A stretch of DNA of 64,000 nucleotides, taken from NCBI GenBank assembly GCA_951406725.2, contig OX597819.1:21576001-21640000 (forward strand), in the 5' to 3' direction. The notes below the pieces were generated by a model that saw only the letters and a program-made list of their open reading frames with translations, did not search any database and was not told the DNA's origin. Shown in pieces: positions 1,780 to 61,386 of the stretch (its first letter is position 1; each line of letters begins with the position of its first letter). This DNA comes from Octopus vulgaris (lineage: Eukaryota). Both the position numbers and the translations under genes were made by a program.

Positions 1780-2432
1780 ATATATGTATGTATTTATATG
1801 TACATATATATGTATATGTATATATTCATAAATAAACAAATATATATATATATATTTATAAATGTATATATATATATATATATTTATAAATAAATAAATA
1901 AATATATATATATATTTATAAATAAATAAATATATATATATATTTATAAATAAATAAATATATATATATATTTATAAATAAATATATATATATATATTTA
2001 TAAATAAATATATATATATATATTTATAAATAAATATATATATATATATTTATAAATAAATATATATATATATATTTATAAATAAATATATAGACATATA
2101 TACATGCATATTTATAAATAAATATATATTCATATATATATACATATATATGTATATATTTATAAATAAATAAATATATATATATATACATATATAAATA
2201 TATATACCTATAAATATATATAAATATACATATATATATACATAAATATATATATATATAAATATACATATATATATACATAAATATATATATATATACC
2301 TATAAATATATATAAATATACATATATATATACATAAATATATATATATATAAATATACATATATATATACATAAATATATATATATATATATACCTATA
2401 AATATACATTTATATATATACATATAAATATA

Positions 2433-2530
<98 letters not shown>

Positions 2531-2600
2531 TATAAATATACATATATATATATATATATATATCCATGTAAATAAATATATACATATATATATATATTTA
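1780..2600. repeat. Compound (TA)n / TATTTATAAATAAA minisatellite
   Basis: Visible tandem units of (TA)n interrupted by TTTATAAATAAA or CATAAATA. Confidence 0.9.
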
Positions 2601-2995
2601 TTGATATTGATTTTTGTCGGTTACCTACCGAGGGTATCTAGCTGTCCAGTTTTGTATTTCTCTAACGGCCATTCGATCTGTCTGACCATTCGTCTACGTA
2701 TTTATGTTTATCTTTTTATCAGCCTGCTTATCTCTCTAAACTTTCCCAAACTACATAATACACACACAACAAACACAATCATGTGCTCACACAGACACAT
2801 ATCTACACTCCCTCCCCAAAGACACGTCTACAGTCATAAACATAGAAATATGTATATATATGTGTTCTGGATTGTCTAGCGTTCCATCATTGTCGGAATT
2901 ATTTACAGAATACCATTCACCAGCACCACCGTCATCGGCAGAACTCTTACACTCATGACAGTACATACAAATACCTATCTATCTCTGTGTCTCGC

Positions 2996-3108
<113 letters not shown>

Positions 3109-3150
3109 ATATATATAGATATGTATATATGATGTGAGTATTTGTGTCTG

Positions 3151-3198
<48 letters not shown>

Positions 3199-3302
3199 GT
3201 GTGTGTACATATATATAATATATGTATATACATATATATATTATATATTATATGTGTGTGTCTACATACATATACGAACACACGCGAAATCATGAGTGCG
3301 CG

Positions 3303-3379
<77 letters not shown>

Positions 3380-3380
<1 letters not shown>

Positions 3381-3543
3381 CGTATGTGTGGCTGTGTGGT
3401 AAGCAGCTTCCTTACCAACCACATGTTTCCCAGTTCATTACCACTGTGTGGCACCTTGGGCAAGTGCTTTCTTCTATAGCCTACGGCCGACAAAAGCATT
3501 GAGAGAATTCGGTAGACGGAAACTGAAAGAAGCCCGTCGTATA
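3380..3543 (+). mobile_element. tRNA-derived SINE family A, 5' part
   Basis: GTGGCTGTGTGGTAAG A-box-like head and CCTTGGGCAAGTG...GGTAGACGGAAACTGAAAGAAGCCCGTCG body, shared with about 10 other copies in the window. Confidence 0.8.
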
Positions 3544-3817
3544 TTATATATACGTTTATATATTTTCATTGATAATTTATATATATTAGTCATTTTAAAA
3601 TATATATGTAATTAGACGTAGACTAATACCGATATTGGATTATGGGTGGGTTTCCTACCTTATAAATTAAAATTAATATTTAACATTATAGTCGATTTTG
3701 ATATAATCATAATTGTTAAGTTCTATGTTTCTAGTTTGATAATAGAGTTTATTATAAGTAAAATTATTATATTATTTATATCTTTAAAATATTGTTTAAA
3801 TATTTCTGATTATATTT

Positions 3818-3886
3818 TACCTGAAGATTGACTGTAACCATAACTCGAATTATTACGAATTAGACAGTCATGAAACGATCGTAGTG
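3818..3886 (+). ncRNA. Minimal type-I hammerhead ribozyme motif
   Basis: TAC-CTGAAGA-T-TGACTGT...ACAGTCA-T-GAAA-CGATCG-TA-GTG. Canonical core, 7-bp stem II, palindromic stem III, GUA triplet; stem I is weak. Confidence 0.65.
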
Positions 3887-4939
3887 TTTTACTCATTATC
3901 TTTTATTAAACTTTTAATACTTTTGATATATATTTAAAATAATATAAATTAATTAATTTTATGTATTGGCTTAAGTTTTTCATTGTTTGATTTGCCTAAT
4001 AGTGGTTTTATCTCTAATTTAATATAATATATATATATATATTTATATATACACACGTAATATAGAATGCAGCGATTTTAGCTTGCCCGTCTTTTATATG
4101 CCGAAAGACTAACTGACATCGTGCTTTGTTTGATATTCTCCGAAGATTAACCCTCTCAAAATGCTGTTTGTTCTTGGCTCCCCCTTGTTCTCTTTCCTTT
4201 GTCTTACATTTTGCATGTTTTTTTTTAAATTCCTCCTCAAAGAAATACGTTTGATAGAAGAATGTCCCAAAGTGTAACCAAGCAAAGGAAGAACAGAGAC
4301 TGCATTTTGTAGATTGATTGGCCCCCACGTTATGTACACATCGAAATAATTAGGACATGATTTTCACGATATAATGTCTGTCCGTTCTTAAAATAAAAGA
4401 ATGAAAAGTTTATATGATTTCCAGCACCCCTTGTGTGCAATGATCAAATACAGTACGTAGGTACATACAAACATACATACATACATACATACATACATAC
4501 AAACATAAATATCTTCAAATACGTGCGCGTGTGTGTATGAGAGCATTGAGAGTATATATGTGTGCATGTATGCATAGATGAATATAAAAGAATATGTGCG
4601 TATATATGTCTCCGTCTCACTTGCTCTCTCATTTCTTTCCACTGTGTATGTATACATATGTGTGTATGTGTGTATATATATATATATATATTTGTGTGTG
4701 TATGAGTGAGTGAGAGTTCGGATGTGTACACACCCATATACACATACATGTATATGTTTGTGCCTTTGAACATATATATATATATGCGTACATGTATAGA
4801 TTCTTACACATATATATGCATAAACGTATATAGATGAACATACTCTAATTGTAGGATATTGTGTGCGTGTGTGTGTATTCATGTTTTTACTGTTTGAACA
4901 ATATATCGCTTATATACACATGAGCACGTATGGGTACGC

Positions 4940-10293: not shown

Positions 10294-10358
<65 letters not shown>

Positions 10359-10772
10359 AGAAATATTGAATTTCTAAATCTCTCGTGGAGACATGTACGG
10401 TGGTGGGGCGTTAGAATGGTTGTATACTGTCAATCTAACAAAAACGTGACAGTAGGGGGTACACCACCGCTGTATAGCCCTAGGAAGCATCGAACGCCTC
10501 CTGATAGCTTTGACACATTTTTCCCTAGGGAAAAAATGTGTCAAAGCTTCCTAGGGCTATACAGCGGTGGTGTACCCCCTACTGTCACGTTCTTGTTAGA
10601 TTGACAGTATACAACCATTCTATCGCCCCACCACCGTACATGTCTCTACGAGAGATTTAGAAATTCAATATTTCTTATTTTGATAATCAGTGAATAAACT
10701 TCACTGAATATATATGTGTCCTTATATACATATACGAAGGGGAGACAAACACCCCCGGCTGCCGGAACTGCA

Positions 10773-10818
10773 TCTAGGGACACCGTGTTTCAGGATCGTT
10801 GTCCTTCATCGGCCTAGA
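10773..10818 (-). ncRNA. Minimal type-I hammerhead ribozyme
   Basis: TCTAGG-CCGATGA-AGGA caacga TCCT-GAAA-CAC g GTG-TC-CCTAGA: 6-bp stem I, 4-bp stem II, GUC site, U4C core variant. Confidence 0.8.
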
Positions 10819-11257
10819 GTAGCAGACACCGGTCAGCTCGTGATATTTGCCTCGACTTCGTAATTGTATATACTTATATTCAGTGAAGTTTATTCACTGA
10901 TTATCAAAATAAGAAATATTGAATTTCTAAATCTCTCGTAGAGACATGTACGGTGGTGGGGCGATAGAATGGTTGTATACTGTCAATCTAACAAGAACGT
11001 GACAGTAGGGGGTACACCACCACTGTATAGCCCTAGGAAGCATCGAACGCCTCCTGATAGCTTTGACACATTTTTCCCTGTGTCCTTATATACATATACG
11101 AAGGGGAGACAAATACCCCCGGCTGCCGGAACTGCATCTAGGGACACCGTGTTTCAGGATCGTCGGCCTAGAGTAGCAGACACCGGTCAGCTGGTGATAT
11201 TTGCCTCGACTTTGTAATTGTATATACCTATATTCAGTGAAGTTTATTCACTGCTAC

Positions 11258-11303
11258 TCTAGGCCGATGAAGGCCAACGATCCTGAAACATGGTGTCCCT
11301 AGA
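11258..11303 (+). ncRNA. Minimal type-I hammerhead ribozyme (inverted copy)
   Basis: TCTAGG-CCGATGA-AGG ccaacgat CCT-GAAA-CAT g GTG-TC-CCTAGA. Confidence 0.75.
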
Positions 11304-11471
11304 TACAGTTCCGGCAGCCGGGGTTGTTTGTCTCCCCTTCGTATATGGTATATAAGGACACAGGGAAAAAAATGTGTCAAAGCTATCAGGAGGCGTTCGA
11401 TGCTTCCTAGGGCTATACAGCGGTGGTGTACCCCCTACTGTCACGTTCTTGTTAGATTGACAGTATACAAC

Positions 11472-11532
<61 letters not shown>

Positions 11533-11580: not shown

Positions 11581-13522
11581 TATATCATTTAAAATAAAGT
11601 CATAAAAAGATAAGACCATCTCGAGGGGAGACGAACAGACAAAAACTCAGCGGTACACTTCAGCAGTTGTGACTTGACTGTGGTGTTTTATGGATGCATA
11701 CAAAACATTCACTTCCCTCATCTCCATCTTACAGATTCTCAGGAATCGGCAGGCTGTAGCAACCATTTGATGTGGATTTAGGATTTGAATTTCAATGCTC
11801 AGGGTATGTGCTTCGCCTAACTACGGATATATTTATATATTTACGTAGGCACATGTACATATGTATATACGTGACAATATTCTTTAACGCATCATAACTA
11901 AAAGGCACGCTCTAATTATCAGTGTTCCGAGTCTCACATTCTTGTTCTTTCAGTTAGTAATCCGAGTGTTTTTCGTTTAAATTATCTGATGTTTGTGTAA
12001 TGAAATGTTATAAGTTTGTTTGTTTGTGTTAGTGTGTGTATGAGAGAGAGTGTATGTATGAGAGAGAGTGTATGTATGAGAGAGAGTGTATGTATGAGAT
12101 GGAGAGAGAGAATGTGCGGGTGTGTGTGGTTGTGTGTTCTTACCAACACAAGCTGCACTTCATTTTATCGCTTATTCAAAATTCCAAACGGTCTTCGAAT
12201 TTAACAATGAAATACAGAAACAGGTCACGCTTGCAAGTTCTATATACAATACAAGGACATACACAAACGGTCATACTCACACACACACACAGACACACAC
12301 ACACTAACAAACAGGCAAACGTTTACAAAACACGTTCAAACATACAGATATTTAATTTGAAACTCGTTTTATAACTTAATTTGGGAATTTTTAGATAGCA
12401 GACAGAATAAACAAAAATTTCGAAATTATAAAATAAAATAAAATTGTTTTTAATGATCATTACACACGAGCGATCACCAATTTGACAAACAAAGCTGAAA
12501 TTTGTCAAACACCGTAAAGAAGAAAATGTTTAAATATTTATTGATAATAGCACATAATTGCGTCTATTCTCTGGTGAACAGAATTGTCATATCTTGCAGT
12601 ATTTAATCATAAATTTCAAGAAAACTAAATATTTAAGGAACATATATGAGGTGAGATTGTTTTAGTTTTTTTTTTTTTTTTTTTTTGAAAAGGCATTGTA
12701 TTTGATAAGATAATTTACCAGAGTTAACAATGTGCGTAACTTCTGGACTAACAACTCAGCATTTTTTTGTTCACCCTGTATCTCAGCTTCAACGTTTTCA
12801 TTTAACCGACTACAAACAGCAACAAACTTATTTCAAATCATACCTTATTGTCTTCAACAAAAAAATATATTTATATCGTATTCAGTTTTCAAGATCCTTC
12901 ATATGAATTCGTGTTTTGAAATTGAATTCGTATCCGGTTGGGTCATTATGCTAATAATAAACACGCGCATTGGTTCTATTTCTCTACTTTCTTATTCATC
13001 AATTGATTAAAATGTCATCGCAGAGGTTGCGGAGGAGAACAATGAAAGAACCGATACAATGTTAGCTGATTGATTGACCGAATGCTAAATCCAACAATAT
13101 CGATTTATTAATAAGAAAAATAATTAACCTATCGATAAGTAATAAATACGTGAACTAGAACAAATGCGTGTGATTATAATGGACATAATGACACTGTCGA
13201 GATACAACATAGTCAATAACATAATACTATAACGTTAGATATACAAATAGACATGATGTTTGTAACAGAAGCGTCCTACATCGTAGAGGTACCGGGCGCA
13301 AGTTTGCTGGTACCATACAGCTCGACATTAATTATCGGTCCACATATCTTTTGCTATGTTCATGAAAATATATACCTGTATTCTTTGTCCCAGTTCAAGT
13401 TATATGTTCAATAAAATACTTTGTTCAGCTCTATATTTAAGAGATGAGGAATTATGTACATTATTTCATTATTTATATTATTTACTTTAGGTGGATATTT
13501 GTCCTCATCGTGTTTGTTGTTA

Positions 13523-13566
13523 AAACAATGTTTCGGCTGATATACCCTCCAGCCTTCATCAGGTGT
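13523..13566 (-). ncRNA. Minimal hammerhead motif, left arm
   Basis: ACAC-CTGATGA-A-GGCTG gagggtatat CAGCC-GAAA-CA-TT-GTTT; stems I and III are partly decayed. Confidence 0.6.
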
Positions 13567-13603
13567 CTTGGGAAAATTTCGAACGTGGGTTCCCATTCCT
13601 AAG

Positions 13604-13668
<65 letters not shown>

Positions 13669-13892
13669 GTTCAAGTCACTGCTTGGAATCGAACTCGGAA
13701 TCTTGGGGTTAATAGCCCGCGCTCTTAACCACCACGCCCACGGACATATGACAAAGTGGGCGTAGTGGTTAAGAGCGCGGGCTACTAAGGCCAAGATTCT
13801 GAGTTTCGATTCCCGGCAGTGACCTGAATAACAACAACAACAACATCGAAAATTACCCTAGGAATGAGAACCAGGTTCGAAATTTCCGCAAG

Positions 13893-13936
13893 ACACCTGA
13901 TGAAGGCTGGAAGGTATATCAGCTGAAACGTTATGT
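13893..13936 (+). ncRNA. Minimal hammerhead motif, right arm
   Basis: ACAC-CTGATGA-A-GGCTG gaaggtatat CAGCT-GAAA-CG-TT-ATGT; palindromic AACGTT stem III typical of Penelope-associated minimal hammerheads. Confidence 0.65.
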
Positions 13937-14096
13937 TAACAAGAAACAAGATGAGGACAAATATACATCAAATGTAAATAACTAAAATACTTTGTTGTAA
14001 TTCTGCTTTCAATACATTTTATGCAAGATTTTCCTCCACGAATAGGTGTTGATGAGAAGAGAGAGAGAGAGAGACTAAGTTCTAAGTTCTCTGCAA

Positions 14097-14181
<85 letters not shown>

Positions 14182-14353
14182 GAGAGAGAGATCATTAATG
14201 TTCACTGTAATACTAGACAACCGAGAGGATTCTCCAACAATATGTTCGAACAATACTTACCGTGGCAACCCACAATAAATTGACCCTTACGAAACAACAT
14301 ATATAATCCATGTCCATTGTGAGATGCTACGAAAGTTAGACAGCCCCTGTCTG

Positions 14354-14414
<61 letters not shown>

Positions 14415-14799
14415 GGTAAAATCCAAGCATTAAGGTGTAATAAGCTTAACTTTCGGGAACCTTAGTGATTTATTGACGAAGAAAGTTCTACATCTTTCCC
14501 ATATCAACGTTCGGTAAGTTGAAAAAAGTTATCTTATAGTTGAAGGTTAGCAGCTTGGGGTGCTGTGTGTCTGCGAATAAAAATCCCAAATTTGGGAATG
14601 GAATTGACAAAATCTAGGCTGAAACATAGGTTTCAACGGTAGCATAACTACGGACGTAGTAAATACCCAAATGTGGGGTAATCCGCGAGCGACTGGTCGT
14701 ACCAAAGATATCTTACAAAATGAAGATTATTTCGTCGTTAAGGGATCCTATGTTAACTTGAAGGAAATTTGATCGAATACACACACACGTTTATATGTA

Positions 14800-14995
14800 T
14801 CTATTCTTTTATTTGTTTCAGTCATTTGACTGCGGTCATGCTGGAGCACCACCTTTAGTCGAGCAAATCTACCCCAGGGCTCATTCTTTGTAAGCCGAGT
14901 ATTTATTCTATCAGTCTCTCTTGCCGAACCACTAAACACACCAACATCCGTTGTGAAGCGATGTTAGGGGGACAAACACAGACACACAAACAGAT

Positions 14996-15045
<50 letters not shown>

Positions 15046-16584: not shown

Positions 16585-16660
16585 GTCCGGTCCGGGAATC
16601 GAACTAACAACTTCATGATTTTGTGCCCGATGCTGTAACCACTGAGCCAGGTGCCTGCAC
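16585..16660 (-). mobile_element. Degenerate tRNA-derived SINE head
   Basis: Reverse complement TGGCTCAGTGGTTAC...AGTTCGATTCCCGG (A and B boxes). Confidence 0.55.
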
Positions 16661-21115: not shown

Positions 21116-21237
21116 GCAGTCGAACCCAGCAGGCGTGGCTGCTGACCGTCTGTTCGAAGGATTATTTACCTATATTCAGTGGAATACATCCCCTGGTTTT
21201 CAAAAGTAGAAATATTAATATTTCTAAGTTTCTCTAG

Positions 21238-21775
21238 ATGTTCTCAGGTTCCACTGGCCCCACTCCCGAACAATACGGTCGTTATATAGACGACTGTATC
21301 GGTGCGACCTCACTCTCTCGCGAACATCTAGACTCCTTCCTCTCTTTTGTCAAATCTTTCCATCCTGCCCTCCACTTCTCCTGCACTTTCTCTGACAACT
21401 CTGCCTCCTTTCTTGACATTTCGGCCAGCATTCATCACTCCACTCTCACAACCTGCAGCCACTACAAACACACAGACTCACACTCATACCTCAACTTCTC
21501 CTCCCACCCTAAATACACAAACTTTCCATCCCCTATTCCTCATTCCTCCGTCTGCGCAGGCTCTGATGTGACGACCATAACATTGAGACTCAGTGTCAAC
21601 TCATGGCTCGCCACTTCATCCTACGTGGATATCCTCTCACTACTATCCACACCGTCCTTGCCAGAGCACGTTCCGCGGACCGTGCATCTACTGTCTCCCG
21701 CCGAACCCGCTCCGTCGTCTTCCACCTCCCGATTCCCCTCACCTAACACCCACCACCCTACCTCTCAAACGCACC
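21238..21775 (+). mobile_element. Penelope-like element reverse transcriptase fragment (palm to thumb), frameshifted
   Basis: YGRYIDDCIG...SFHPALHFS...SFLDIS...HYKHTDSHSYLNFSSHP, then in a shifted frame PYSSFLRLRRL*CDD...HFILRGYP, all characteristic of PLE RT. Confidence 0.9.
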
Positions 21776-21780
21776 ATTTT

Positions 21781-22113
21781 TATTTCGGGATGTTAATTTT
21801 CTTTTTTACGGAGATGTACCTGCATAGCAAGTGATTTGATCTGAGATCGTGTGCTGAAACGAAAACAATTGCAGCGTTTTCTTTTCCAAATAAACAGTCA
21901 CACTATGTTTTTTCTTCACTCATGGAGTAAGTGCAGCAAGAACACGCACAAAAACGAAAAGTGTCGCTGAAAAGGTCACAGATGTCTGACGAAAGATTTA
22001 CGGAAAATGGACATGATGAAATAATGAAATAAGAATAGAAATAGATGAGTGAAGAAAAATATATAATGCGTGTGGTTATTTCTCAAAAAAAAAAAAATGT
22101 CCGTCCCGAAATA
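21781..22113. mobile_element. MITE-like element with short TIRs
   Basis: Left TATTTCGGGATG..ATTTT; right reverse complement TATTTCGGGACG..CATTTT. It truncates the PLE RT fragment. Confidence 0.55.
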
Positions 22114-33364: not shown

Positions 33365-34990
33365 AAGTGACAATTTGCACTTTGTCGGCATCCTGGTAAA
33401 ATGCTTTTGGAAAGAGGCATCATCACTCATGTCAGAGGCAGTGAGCTGGCAGAATCGTTAGCACGCCGGGCGAAATGCTTAGTGGTATTTCGTCTGCCGT
33501 TACGTTCTGGGTTCATATTCCGCCAAGGTCGACTTTGCCTTTCATCCTTTCGGGGTCGATTAAATAAGTACCAGTTAAGCACTGGGGTCGATATAATTGA
33601 CTTAATCCGTTTGTCCGTCCTTGTTTATCCTCTCTGTGTTTAGCTCCTTGTGGGTAGTAAAGAAATAGGTATCATCACTCATGTCGATACCCATGTCCCT
33701 CATTGATTTAGGCTCTGTGATGGAAATTCCCTGTGGACCAGTGTACCCTGTAAATTTCATATTCAATTTTGGACGCTGGTAGCCCAGGATTTGGAATTTT
33801 TCAGCATTAAACTACATATTATTATCCTTAGCCCAAGTGTAAATTGAGTCCACTCCTGCTGCAACATCACTGGGGTTCTGCATTTTCTGTGAGACTTTCG
33901 TATCGTCTGCGTAGCTTGCAATGGTCGCTATCCAGCCACTTAAGTGCATATCTGAGAGAATCTGGAGGGGTTTTGCCAGGGCACGCTTACACGACTTGAT
34001 GAGGATTGTTGGGAAACCATCTGGACCAGCAGTTGAGTTTGTGTCCACTTCCACTATGGCTAGTAGTATATCTTCTTCGCTAATGTCAATGTATTCCATC
34101 GTAATTGCCTCGCTGGTTATAGGTGAGGCGGCAAAGAAGTCCACTCGTTCGTTCACTTGTTTGTGTTCCAAAGGAGTGGTAAACACACTTTTGAACTGGT
34201 CATTCAGTACCTCACTGATCCAAGTTGGACTGTCTGTGAGGGAGCCATCCTTTTGGAAGAGGGGTCCTATCTTGCAGCGTATTGTTTCTTTCGCGTAACG
34301 AAAGAAGGACTTTGGGTTTGACAATGTTTTTTATAACCCAGGCTTCTTTGTCTGCCTTCTCCCTCACATAGGATTGTTGCAGCCTTTTTTCGATCTCCAT
34401 AAGTATCGTTTTTATGCGGGACGTTTCGCTACTTTTAGGATGTTGGTTGAGTCGATTTGCAGCCTTCGTCCGTCGGTCTCATGTGGATCACATCTCCCTT
34501 GGAATCTTGCTCCTATTTGTTTTGGCCTTGTGCTCTGGGACATATTCCAGGCATATGGTTTGCACAGAAGACATAAAACATTCTAGTTTCATGTCAATGT
34601 CTGGTGTGGAGAGACATTTCGGCCAGTCCTCTCTGAGGATCTCTTTTTGGATCGATTTCCAATCTGCTTTGTGAAAGTTCAGATTGGAGAGATTTCGGGT
34701 GCTTCCTTTAGGCTCTATGTCTTTGGTTACTTTCGATCCAAACATAGACAGCTCTATTATGTTGTGATTCGAAACTAATGTCGGCGTCACATTCACTTCA
34801 TGAATGATGTCCATATTTTTCGTGAAGCAGAGATCCAGAATGTTATTTGCCCTAGTTGATCTAAGTACAGCTTGCTTCATGAATAGGGCATTGGTGAGGT
34901 TTCGGCAGGGACTCCACCTGTGCTTGCTTGCAATGAGTCATTCCTGAGAGTATGTGACCTTCGGGACATTTGACGCTTGGGAAGTTGTTC
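33365..34990 (-). mobile_element. Decayed CR1/Jockey-group LINE ORF2 (APE C-terminus, tether and RT) with internal deletion, interrupted by a SINE
   Basis: TRANNILDLCFT...SNHNIIE...NFHKADW; NPKSFFRYAK; AGPDGFP; IASYADDTK...WAKDNNM*FNAEKFQ...RDMGIDMSDDASF. Confidence 0.9.
33434..33666 (+). mobile_element. SINE family B (Nin-domain-like), full length, 19-bp TSD
   Basis: GAGCTGGCAGAATCG head, GCCTTTCATCCTTTCGGGGTCGAT..AAGTACCAG central domain, ends AAAGAAAT. TSD AGGYATCATCACTCATGTC at 33415-33433 and 33667-33685. Confidence 0.9.
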
Positions 34991-38744: not shown

Positions 38745-38882
38745 TAACAGCTAAGTGAGCTGAAGCAACGTGAAAGGAAGTGATTTGCTCAAAAACAAAA
38801 TGCACAGCCTAGTCCGGGAATCGAAACGAACATCTTGCAAATTGGAGTGCACAACCTTGACCACTAGGCTATGAACCTCCAC
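38745..38882 (-). mobile_element. Degenerate tRNA-derived SINE head
   Basis: Reverse complement GTGGAGG..TAGCCTAGTGGTCAAGG...GTTTCGATTCCCGG. Confidence 0.55.
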
Positions 38883-59664: not shown

Positions 59665-61386
59665 TCGTTCACACGTGTGTTTTTTTGGGGTTTTTTGGGG
59701 GTTTTTTAGCTCGTGCGGTGAAGACGTTATGCTGTTGTGAAAACGTCGTTACGTGTTCGGTTCTGTTGGGAATTCGGAAAAGTTGGTTTTAGTTATAAGG
59801 TTTGCTTTTAGTAATTTTCACTGGTGAATTTAGTCTGTCTGTTTGAGACAGACGAAGGAGAATGAGCTTTTTCTCGTTGAGAGGAGGAATGGAAGTGACA
59901 AGGAGAAGAATGTTCAGTGAGTCGGACTTGTCGTCTTCCGAAGAAGAGTTAGTGGAGGCGATGGAAAAAATGGACATGGTTTTAAAAAAAAGAAAATACG
60001 CAGGTGCAACAAAGACAGTGACGAAGGAAATAAATTTGGCAAAGTTGCCGGAAACCCAGGATATGATAAGAAGAGTAAACGGAGAGGTGGAATTGTTGCT
60101 GCCCAACAGGAAAAGGAACAAAATGGAAAAAAAGAAAATAACGTACAGAGTCTTAGCTAATGAAAAGAAAATAGCAGATATAATAAGCATGGAAACGCTA
60201 GCGGAAGCCCTAAGAACAACAGAAGAAATGATATTCCTCGCAAGAGGAAATAAGTATGCCACAGTGGTGGTACAGTATAAAAACGAGGAAACAGCAAGAA
60301 GAATGGCTGCAAAGACAATAAATAATGAAAAAGTAACACTTCTACCCACTTATCTAGGGAGAAGAACCTCAAGAATTACGGTGGATGGAATACCACCGGT
60401 TATCGATGCAGAAATGGTAGTAGCAGCGGTTATCTGCGGTAACGAAGATAAGGTTGACATAGTCCAAGCGACTATAACAGATGATAGAGGGTGGAGAGGT
60501 GGGACGCTGGAAATGAGCGTCCAAGCAGAAATGGGAATCCTACAAAATTTAGCAGAATCGATTACGACAAACGACATAACAATGAGAGTATGGGTGGAGG
60601 GCAGAGCCCCTCGATGTTATAAATCTGGCTTGAAAGGCCACATAAGAGCAAACTGCAATACGACAGTGGAAGAGATAAACGAAGAAGCAGCAGTGGAAAC
60701 GGTAGCACCCCAGGAGGAACTGAAAGAAACAGAAGAAAAAGAGAGTCAAGTGAAGGAAGACGGAAAAGAGGATGAAAATCCAGGAAAAAGAAAACAGTGG
60801 AAAACAAAAAAGGCAAGTGACTGTGAAACGCAACCCACCACAGCACCACCCTCACCCATTGTGGCCCAACCCGTCCACGCAGACACCAAACCCATCCACT
60901 ACCCACCAACAAGAAAATTTAAAACATGCACATAATTGATAACTCAAAAACCCCGTCCAGAAGAATATTGTTTAAGGAAAATAGACAGTGAGCAATTACA
61001 TGAAAGATTAAAGAACTGGGGAAAGGCCGAAATGCCAGATAGATGGGATGAAGAAATGGAAGTGGTATTGTCGGAAGAGCAAGTGAAAGAACTTAAAAAT
61101 GAACTTGAAGATGCATACATGTTAATTAGAGGAAGATTAGTACAGGAAAAGAAAAATGAACTCTGGAAAATACACGGGTTAAAATTTGGGGATTTCGTGG
61201 ATTTTGTAGTAAAATAGGAAAAAGGACAAGCAAGTGATGTTGACTGGTGGGACAGTTAACATCACCTTCACCTCTCATCTATCGCCCATTTTTCCATCCC
61301 ATCATTCGACAATTTTTTATGTTTTGTGTCCCCAACGTGTCGTAATGTCCCATCTATGTATAGTCCTTTATGGATAATAAAGAAAT
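59665..61386 (+). mobile_element. ORF1-only non-autonomous retroelement, apparently full length
   Basis: Flanked by TCACAGGTG (59656-59664) and TCACAGCTG (61387-61395). About 200-bp 5' UTR, one long reading frame, and a short 3' UTR ending AATAAAGAAAT. No RT or endonuclease motifs. Confidence 0.75.
59862..61217 (+). pseudogene. L1/Tx1-type ORF1 (gag-like) protein with RRM-like region and CCHC knuckle; one in-frame stop at 60933-60935
   Basis: The 357-aa and 93-aa ORFs are in the same frame. LLPTYLGRRTSRITVDGIPP and VWVEGRAPRCYKSGLKGHIRANC (CX2CX4HX4C with the second C changed to S). Confidence 0.75.

Follow-up and report, generated by a model that had tools for sequence, protein, structure and literature searches.

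SINEs are regarded as chimeras that borrow a LINE tail. The systems closest to the insertion described here are the EN+ Penelope-like elements (PLEs), which, in the available parts of four reports (PMC3846280, PMC8557442, PMC11167929, PMC4209133), share an ORF that begins within the pLTR and encodes RT with a C-terminal GIY-YIG domain, a minimal hammerhead in the pLTR, an inverted 5′-truncated copy, a tail of 30-40 nt at one end, an AT-rich TSD of 9-14 bp, a 5′ palindrome, and partial tandems. Inverted pLTRs, one of them with a 31-bp tail, together with a TSD and 5′ palindromes, are documented in the accessible text of PMC3846280, and the same head-to-head layout appears in that of PMC8557442. 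Palindromes at pLTR 5′ ends are thus known in PLEs, and a tRNA head is not reported with them in the same accessible text of PMC3846280; tRNA is mentioned either not at all or only irrelevantly in the available portions of PMC3846280, PMC8557442, and PMC4209133. In the work of PMC11167929, two internal RT starts bound the tail, and both target strands are extended.

Other described elements combine some of the same parts. As presented in the accessible part of Kojima 2024 (PMC10886601), the TRIMp3 elements (Helenus, Ajax, and Cassandra) likewise carry a small-RNA-derived Pol III promoter, perhaps supplied by an inserted SINE, inside the terminal repeat, but they are non-autonomous LTR elements whose autonomous partners are argued to need Pol II; in octopus, it is the coding element, a PLE, that bears the head. 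The Schistosoma repeats Sm-alpha and Sj-alpha (available text of PMC2770079 and PMC6765202) similarly combine, within one short retroposed unit, a hammerhead and Pol III- or tRNA-related sequence, although they are often tandem and cleavage-released, have the promoter at the 3′ terminus of the cleaved units, and have no autonomous partner named there, whereas the octopus insertions are single or head-to-head and have ends that lie off the cut site. MRC1 of Chlamys (PMC8557442) and the animal non-LTR retrozymes (bioRxiv 10.64898/2026.07.22.740005) are also short, non-coding, and related to PLE pLTRs; in the available text, however, the retrozymes form head-to-tail tandem hammerhead arrays with no mention of a tRNA head, and the short octopus copies are the pLTR of the parent itself rather than a diverged family. 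Repeat classes are only listed in the accessible part of PMC13282606. No PLE with a tRNA-derived pLTR was found in the literature searched; repeat databases (Repbase, Dfam) and subscription journals lay outside that scope and may already hold the family. Compared with the EN+ PLEs, the octopus element has tRNA-like A and B boxes and an AAT tract in its pLTR, a roughly six-fold excess of head-starting copies, and no TTTT in its unit consensus. The apparent novelty lies in a tRNA-like head with A and B boxes that an autonomous element carries within its pLTR, head-to-head one-tailed pLTRs being already published.

The window analyzed here, a 64-kb stretch of Octopus vulgaris DNA, contains a 557-bp unit flanked by a perfect 14-bp TSD, TAAAATACTTTGTT, whose two copies (13412-13425 and 13983-13996, + strand) were recognized by their identity at 14 of 14 positions. 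This sequence occurs only twice within the window, and such a match would be expected by chance with a probability of ~3e-5 over 600 registers. The original prediction that the unit is a foldback bounded by direct repeats is borne out, as the arms are 86% complementary over 13470-13588/13871-13989 and 90% over 13692-13741/13756-13805, and their alignment reveals decay in both. Each arm reads, in order, head, (AAT/AAC)n tract, hammerhead-like motif, and 3′ part. The predicted order therefore stands, but the motifs quoted for it are composites of two decayed arms rather than the real sequence of either, and both arms carry motif-breaking changes in the hammerhead.

With element positions numbered so that +1 is the initial G of the A box, the left arm (13426..13741, − strand) extends from ~+1 to ~+270 and includes an A-box-like motif (13729..13738, −; GGCGTGGTGG), a B-box-like motif (13685..13694, −), an (AAT)n tract (13605..13668, −), and a minimal type I hammerhead motif (13522..13567, −), laid out as in the available text of PMC4209133, in which CAGCC-GAAA-CA-TT records the loss of the palindromic 15.2-16.2 CG by decay to CA. 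The right arm (13756..13982, +) extends from ~+1 to ~+234, with an A-box-like motif (13759..13768, +), a B-box-like motif containing one extra T (13803..13813, +), an (AAT/AAC)n tract (13827..13845, +), and a minimal type I hammerhead motif (13892..13937, +) whose stem II reads CAGCT, whose stem I contains a mismatch, and whose predicted cut falls after 13932. The codon predicted to start the ORF in the autonomous element (+108) falls at 13864..13866 (+), 5′ of this hammerhead. The arms are asymmetric, the left one being ~35 nt longer at its 3′ end. This extension is the PLE tail, of which the distal 33 nt (13426..13458, −) are absent from the right arm and correspond to N-terminal ORF sequence in tandem autonomous copies. 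Between the arms lies a junction (13736..13755, +), identified by eye as a remnant of the pLTR 5′ palindrome (~−14 to +1), that overlaps the start of the left arm by a few bases; a short insert following the remnant may be a decayed duplicate of the A box.

A search of the genome (2.8 Gb in 227 contigs) with the right arm returned 4,582 candidates, the best of them at 87-90% identity. At one locus (L072), sequence coding for an endonuclease C-terminus occurs immediately 5′ of the head, and the endonuclease peptide from this locus retrieved 2,998 candidates in the genome. Arm sequence follows the endonuclease stop codon in 25 of 30 fetched loci (query included), in 22 cases from the head, with a distance of 37 nt from stop codon to head; the remaining five loci break off within ~40 nt of the stop. 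A search with an N-terminal peptide gave 418 candidates, and at 26 of 30 such loci the tail is positioned directly 5′ of the ORF continuation and in frame with it, five of them also having an upstream endonuclease end. The suspected match between the tail and the pLTR of an autonomous PLE is thereby confirmed at both ends of the ORF, and mobilization by Penelope machinery, as originally suggested, is supported by the presence in the genome of an autonomous RT and GIY-YIG element with the same 3′ region. The further suggestion of a chimeric SINE with a head of its own is contradicted, because the head sits in the pLTR of the autonomous element.

One locus (L122) retains a 569-codon open RT and GIY-YIG frame, with a tail-less pLTR on its 3′ side and an inverted tailed pLTR on its 5′ side, and its RVT_1 match (E 2.7e-6) is below the curated cut-off. 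The RT motifs of the parent element are DKG, YGLPKIHK, and YVDD, and its endonuclease is by eye a variant GIY-YIG, with no match to PF01541, although some relatives do match this model. The unit in a consensus assembled by script is 2,661 nt long; its 838-codon ORF, interrupted by one internal stop, starts at +108, inside the pLTR and upstream of the hammerhead core (+142). Of 7,999 scored, 2,744 are relatives at E<=1e-30, the best being 68% identical, and in a 55%-identical relative (P0003) the matching N-terminus overlaps the hammerhead. Taken as a whole, the head, the AAT tract, the hammerhead, and the tail constitute the pLTR of an autonomous element of the Penelope/Poseidon type, and the window unit is almost certainly a pair of such pLTRs. 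The element is an EN+ PLE by the five features examined, namely an ORF with RT and C-terminal GIY-YIG, a tandem pLTR containing the ORF start, an inverted copy with tail, a TSD, and a minimal hammerhead; the Penelope/Poseidon label derives from domain order and hammerhead position.

The families found with PF01541 (148 matches) are other PLEs, none of 30 fetched loci having the tail. The label Naiad was dropped for them, because in these families a cysteine finger precedes an endonuclease located at the C-terminus. Neptune-like is presumably the better label. In viral contigs, seven pattern matches were obtained, none of which is a relative. The genome contains an abundant, presumably Neptune-like PLE family (L031-L060, e.g., L037 and L042) with many intact 781-codon ORFs ending in a C-terminal GIY-YIG and cysteine finger, which is probably young, given its many near-identical copies; one regular expression detected no hammerhead in the 800 nt from its endonuclease start. 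Elsewhere in the window, at 10356-11479, lies an unrelated multi-arm foldback of ~1.1 kb. Its center is palindromic, it bears a separate hammerhead-like motif of type I (core CCGATGA, with stem III short and palindromic), and it resembles a complex insertion of the end of a different PLE; another locus (L133) has one more copy. A PLE-like RT fragment at 21163-21831 includes a 198-codon open frame (21238-21831, +), and the 75 nt upstream of this frame resemble a section of the 10356-11479 repeat at 78%, the possible parent of that repeat being the family of this fragment. The window further holds a 362-codon open frame (59847-60932, +) and a fragment resembling LINE coding sequence (33815-34330, −).

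The tRNA-like character of the head is supported by alignment to host tRNAs sampled from 30 loci representing six isotypes only, the best being tRNA-Arg (z 7.9, 69% over 52 nt). The head does not fold as a tRNA. ARAGORN detected no tRNA, whether run on the window or, with score thresholds of 75-95, on the consensus assembled by script. Rfam searches of 12400-15000 (E<=10) gave neither a tRNA nor a hammerhead match, and for 20 copies neither occurred at element coordinates among the matches listed (150 of 198); Rfam matches to miRNAs were set aside as hairpin and microsatellite artefacts. Because the library models gave no match, the tRNA and hammerhead labels rest on motif layout and alignment. 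The consensus hammerhead is of the minimal type I, with an extra base after A9, G10.1-C11.1, and a palindromic 15.2-16.2 CG, as laid out in the available text of PMC4209133, and relatives have the same core with other stems. The head is 62-66% like other tRNA-like repeat heads of the genome, and two further such heads, ~62% like it, are found in the window at 16592-16655 and 38814-38872. A/B-box decay (5.0%, versus 4-6% for the rest of the copies) is as expected for dead copies and is uninformative. When 52 ORF-linked heads were compared with 97 short ones, the best site reached P 0.005 among ~270 sites, and none was significant after correction, giving no sign of a SINE lineage of its own. 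A variant at +157 confined to short copies (P 0.01) was dropped as a subfamily marker, its arms being discordant (AG 10, AA 0).

The architecture of the family was sampled at 90 position-ordered loci in the first 14 Mb of contig C1, which reduce to 68 insertions: 41 head-to-head, 26 single, and one complex. Among the 32 head-to-head pairs with both ends readable (nine others were left out), 30 combine a tailed with a tail-less arm, two are tail-less twice, and none is tailed twice (p 1e-7 against 0.5). The tailed arm ends at ~+270 and the tail-less arm at ~+230, and the truncated arm can be either. An exact TSD of at least 9 bp flanks 18 of 32 head-to-head insertions, versus one of 150 mismatched flank pairs, which upholds the proposal that the double-armed form inserts as one unit; TSDs in the sample measure 9-13 bp, with a mode of 13 and 80% AT. 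The near-strict tailed/tail-less pairing fits one priming event per strand, and it matches the two RT starts and both-strand extension of PMC11167929. The head is consistently linked to hammerhead and tail, as had been predicted, in 24 of 30 head-anchored loci. Six of these 30 copies (L178, L179, L189, L190, L194, and L197) break off within the AAT tract, beyond which the sequence is unrelated, and this tract may be a hotspot for breakage or insertion. The suggestion that the foldback layout is undescribed is not supported, given the published examples cited at the outset (PMC3846280 and PMC8557442, in their available text).

The original prediction proposed for these copies an independent chimeric SINE, with a tRNA head and a PLE tail, and with an RNA end generated by self-cleavage, possibly through dimeric hammerheads. 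Short head-to-tail copies do dominate, and the minimal hammerhead layout is right. However, the head is present in the autonomous element, and in a set of 120 arms the ends fall mostly at +220-249 (49 arms) or +258-285 (45 arms), 94 of 120 together, with only two ending, and four starting, near the predicted cut at +177. Because the arm ends fall 50-95 nt 3′ of the ribozyme cut site, self-cleavage does not define the inserted ends. Moreover, the two arms lie on opposite strands, which leaves one sense hammerhead per transcript, and insertion occurred without need for ribozyme cleavage in PMC11167929. Head-to-tail tandem arrays with ends at the ribozyme cut, as in retrozymes and Sm-alpha, were not found in the octopus family. 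This chimeric origin is largely refuted, and we regard it as very improbable.

The opposite, 5′ boundary of the short copies coincides with the head. Exact 23-mers from the element occur 641 (−128), 755 (−40), 2,635 (−8), and 4,802 (+23) times in the upstream part, and 6,442 (+134, hammerhead), 6,016 (+243), and 74 (past the tail) times in the downstream part, reversed controls giving 0. On the assumption of equal decay along the element, this profile is flat upstream and rises 6.4-fold across the 5′ edge of the head. In samples anchored at the hammerhead or tail, 32 of 71 arms reach upstream at least to +14, and 25 of these 32 start at −16..+14; the ends are spread over ~40 nt rather than fixed at one base. 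The pile-up coincides with the palindrome, for which a hairpin of −9 kcal/mol is predicted at −22..+2.

Such a boundary could also be produced if the short copies, with the same pLTR identity, were 5′-truncated cDNAs of long RNAs, with RT stalling or folding back on reaching the palindrome just upstream of the head; the tRNA-like segment would then be the relic of a captured SINE or tRNA, without a role as promoter. The hairpin is in keeping with this account, as are the frequent use of the palindrome as junction microhomology, the resemblance of the head to other repeat heads, and the proposal, in the available text of PMC3846280, of self-priming at such palindromes. Furthermore, the polymorphic position +56 is shared between the two arms of double-headed insertions (AA 4, GG 22, AG 2; P ~0.001), pointing to one source per insertion, as self-copying predicts. 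Concordance is weak or absent at +146 and +158, however, and the arms of the window insertion themselves differ at +56. Of 32 arms that start at the head, 15 are paired with one beginning elsewhere or are unpaired, which makes self fold-back by itself an insufficient explanation of the stop. In addition, stem II of the hammerhead is without a comparable pile-up, and the strict tailed/tail-less pairs would need two priming events rather than one fold-back. We therefore consider truncation of long cDNAs to be a credible but rather unlikely source of the short copies.

A further observation concerns TTTT, the Pol III terminator. The 2,661-nt unit consensus contains no TTTT, versus 2.6-5 expected (P 0.05, 0.008, and 0.002 with three shuffles), in a post hoc test made on the consensus; natural copies have such runs at 0.5 per kb, with one recurrent site, the left arm of the window included. 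Another PLE family of the genome has seven TTTT in 1,794 nt (rate test P 0.002). At least one TTTT is present in the ORFs of 53 of 54 relatives (490 seen, 319 expected), a set drawn from 79 loci by leaving out 25 without a long open frame. The only control ORF that lacks the run is that of L288, the closest relative (48% identity): this metagenome sequence (2103-4244) has 2.1 kb of coding sequence without TTTT, a T-rich UTR with many, and no tRNA-like head that could be seen. The avoidance within the ORF may thus be a lineage trait, while the absence of such runs from the UTR and pLTR of the octopus element is left unexplained by truncated cDNAs. With one regular expression, no A/B-box pair was detected within 700 nt 3′ of the ORFs of the 54 relatives, several of which have little downstream DNA.

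The Penelope element of Drosophila has a promoter of the Pol II type in its pLTR. The 5′ pile-up might mark a Pol II start site in the octopus pLTR, with the A and B boxes incidental, and this would account for a capped, translatable RNA for the 838-codon ORF starting at +108; PLE promoters and start sites are placed in the upstream pLTR in the accessible text of PMC6765202. The start sits, however, where that of a tRNA gene would be expected relative to the A box, and Pol II transcription offers no reason for TTTT avoidance; we hold this explanation to be improbable. In three RNA-seq runs (X21-X23, ~6% of reads) on one locus (L159), no pile of starts or ends was apparent, and a coverage gap fell where L159 has diverged. 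Coverage of the pLTR was equal in both directions and carries no implication for promoter or cleavage. An excess of A>G/T>C differences was rejected as a sign of editing, since a contig run (X15) has the same excess.

The identity of the window unit with head-to-head pLTRs inside one TSD, their link to the ORF at both ends, the asymmetry of the tails, and the concentration of 5′ ends at the head are direct observations. Beyond them we favor, with limited confidence, a reading in which the tRNA-like head, as part of the element's own pLTR, likely serves as an internal Pol III promoter. Given the copy-number step and arm starts at the head, its tRNA-like boxes, and the lack of TTTT, Pol III transcription from the head is plausible, and a Pol III origin of the short copies seems to us somewhat better than an even prospect. 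Under this scheme, short pLTR RNAs would be made by Pol III and copied by the element's protein from both nicked target strands. Transcription would start ~15 nt 5′ of the A box; the protein would bind the ORF-start region inside the pLTR and cut AT-rich DNA with a stagger of 9-14 nt. Each nick would then prime RT, one at the tail end (~+270) and the other at an inner site (~+230), and short homology, in many cases at the 5′ palindrome, would join the two cDNA 3′ ends. Copies that keep the head could be transcribed again, and we propose that pLTR-only copies outnumber ORF-bearing ones ~six-fold because every head-keeping copy has this capacity. The hammerhead would be a passenger that does not set the ends. 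A bolder version, which we hold to be possible though doubtful, is that the whole 2.7-kb element came to be transcribed by Pol III end to end after capture of a tRNA promoter, and that this pLTR promoter yielded a self-made SINE now at ~6:1 over its parent.

These considerations bear on how the family is classified. Of the features of tRNA-derived SINEs, the short copies have the tRNA-related head with A and B boxes and do not have a head of separate origin; because the head is common to the parent, they are not a SINE by membership, and the element is SINE-like in function only if Pol III use holds. In genome annotation, thousands of PLE ends would be filed as tRNA SINEs. The family also supplies genomic statistics on the formation of inverted PLE ends, its near-strict pairing of a tailed with a tail-less arm being consistent with priming at two internal RNA sites from each of the target strands. 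Autonomous retrotransposons are held to need Pol II in the available text of PMC10886601, and a Pol III transcript of the full unit, if real, would also call for an explanation of how translation proceeds from an uncapped RNA. If a coding element does carry a tRNA promoter in its terminal repeat, it would illustrate a route for a SINE-like family to arise from its parent with no fusion step.
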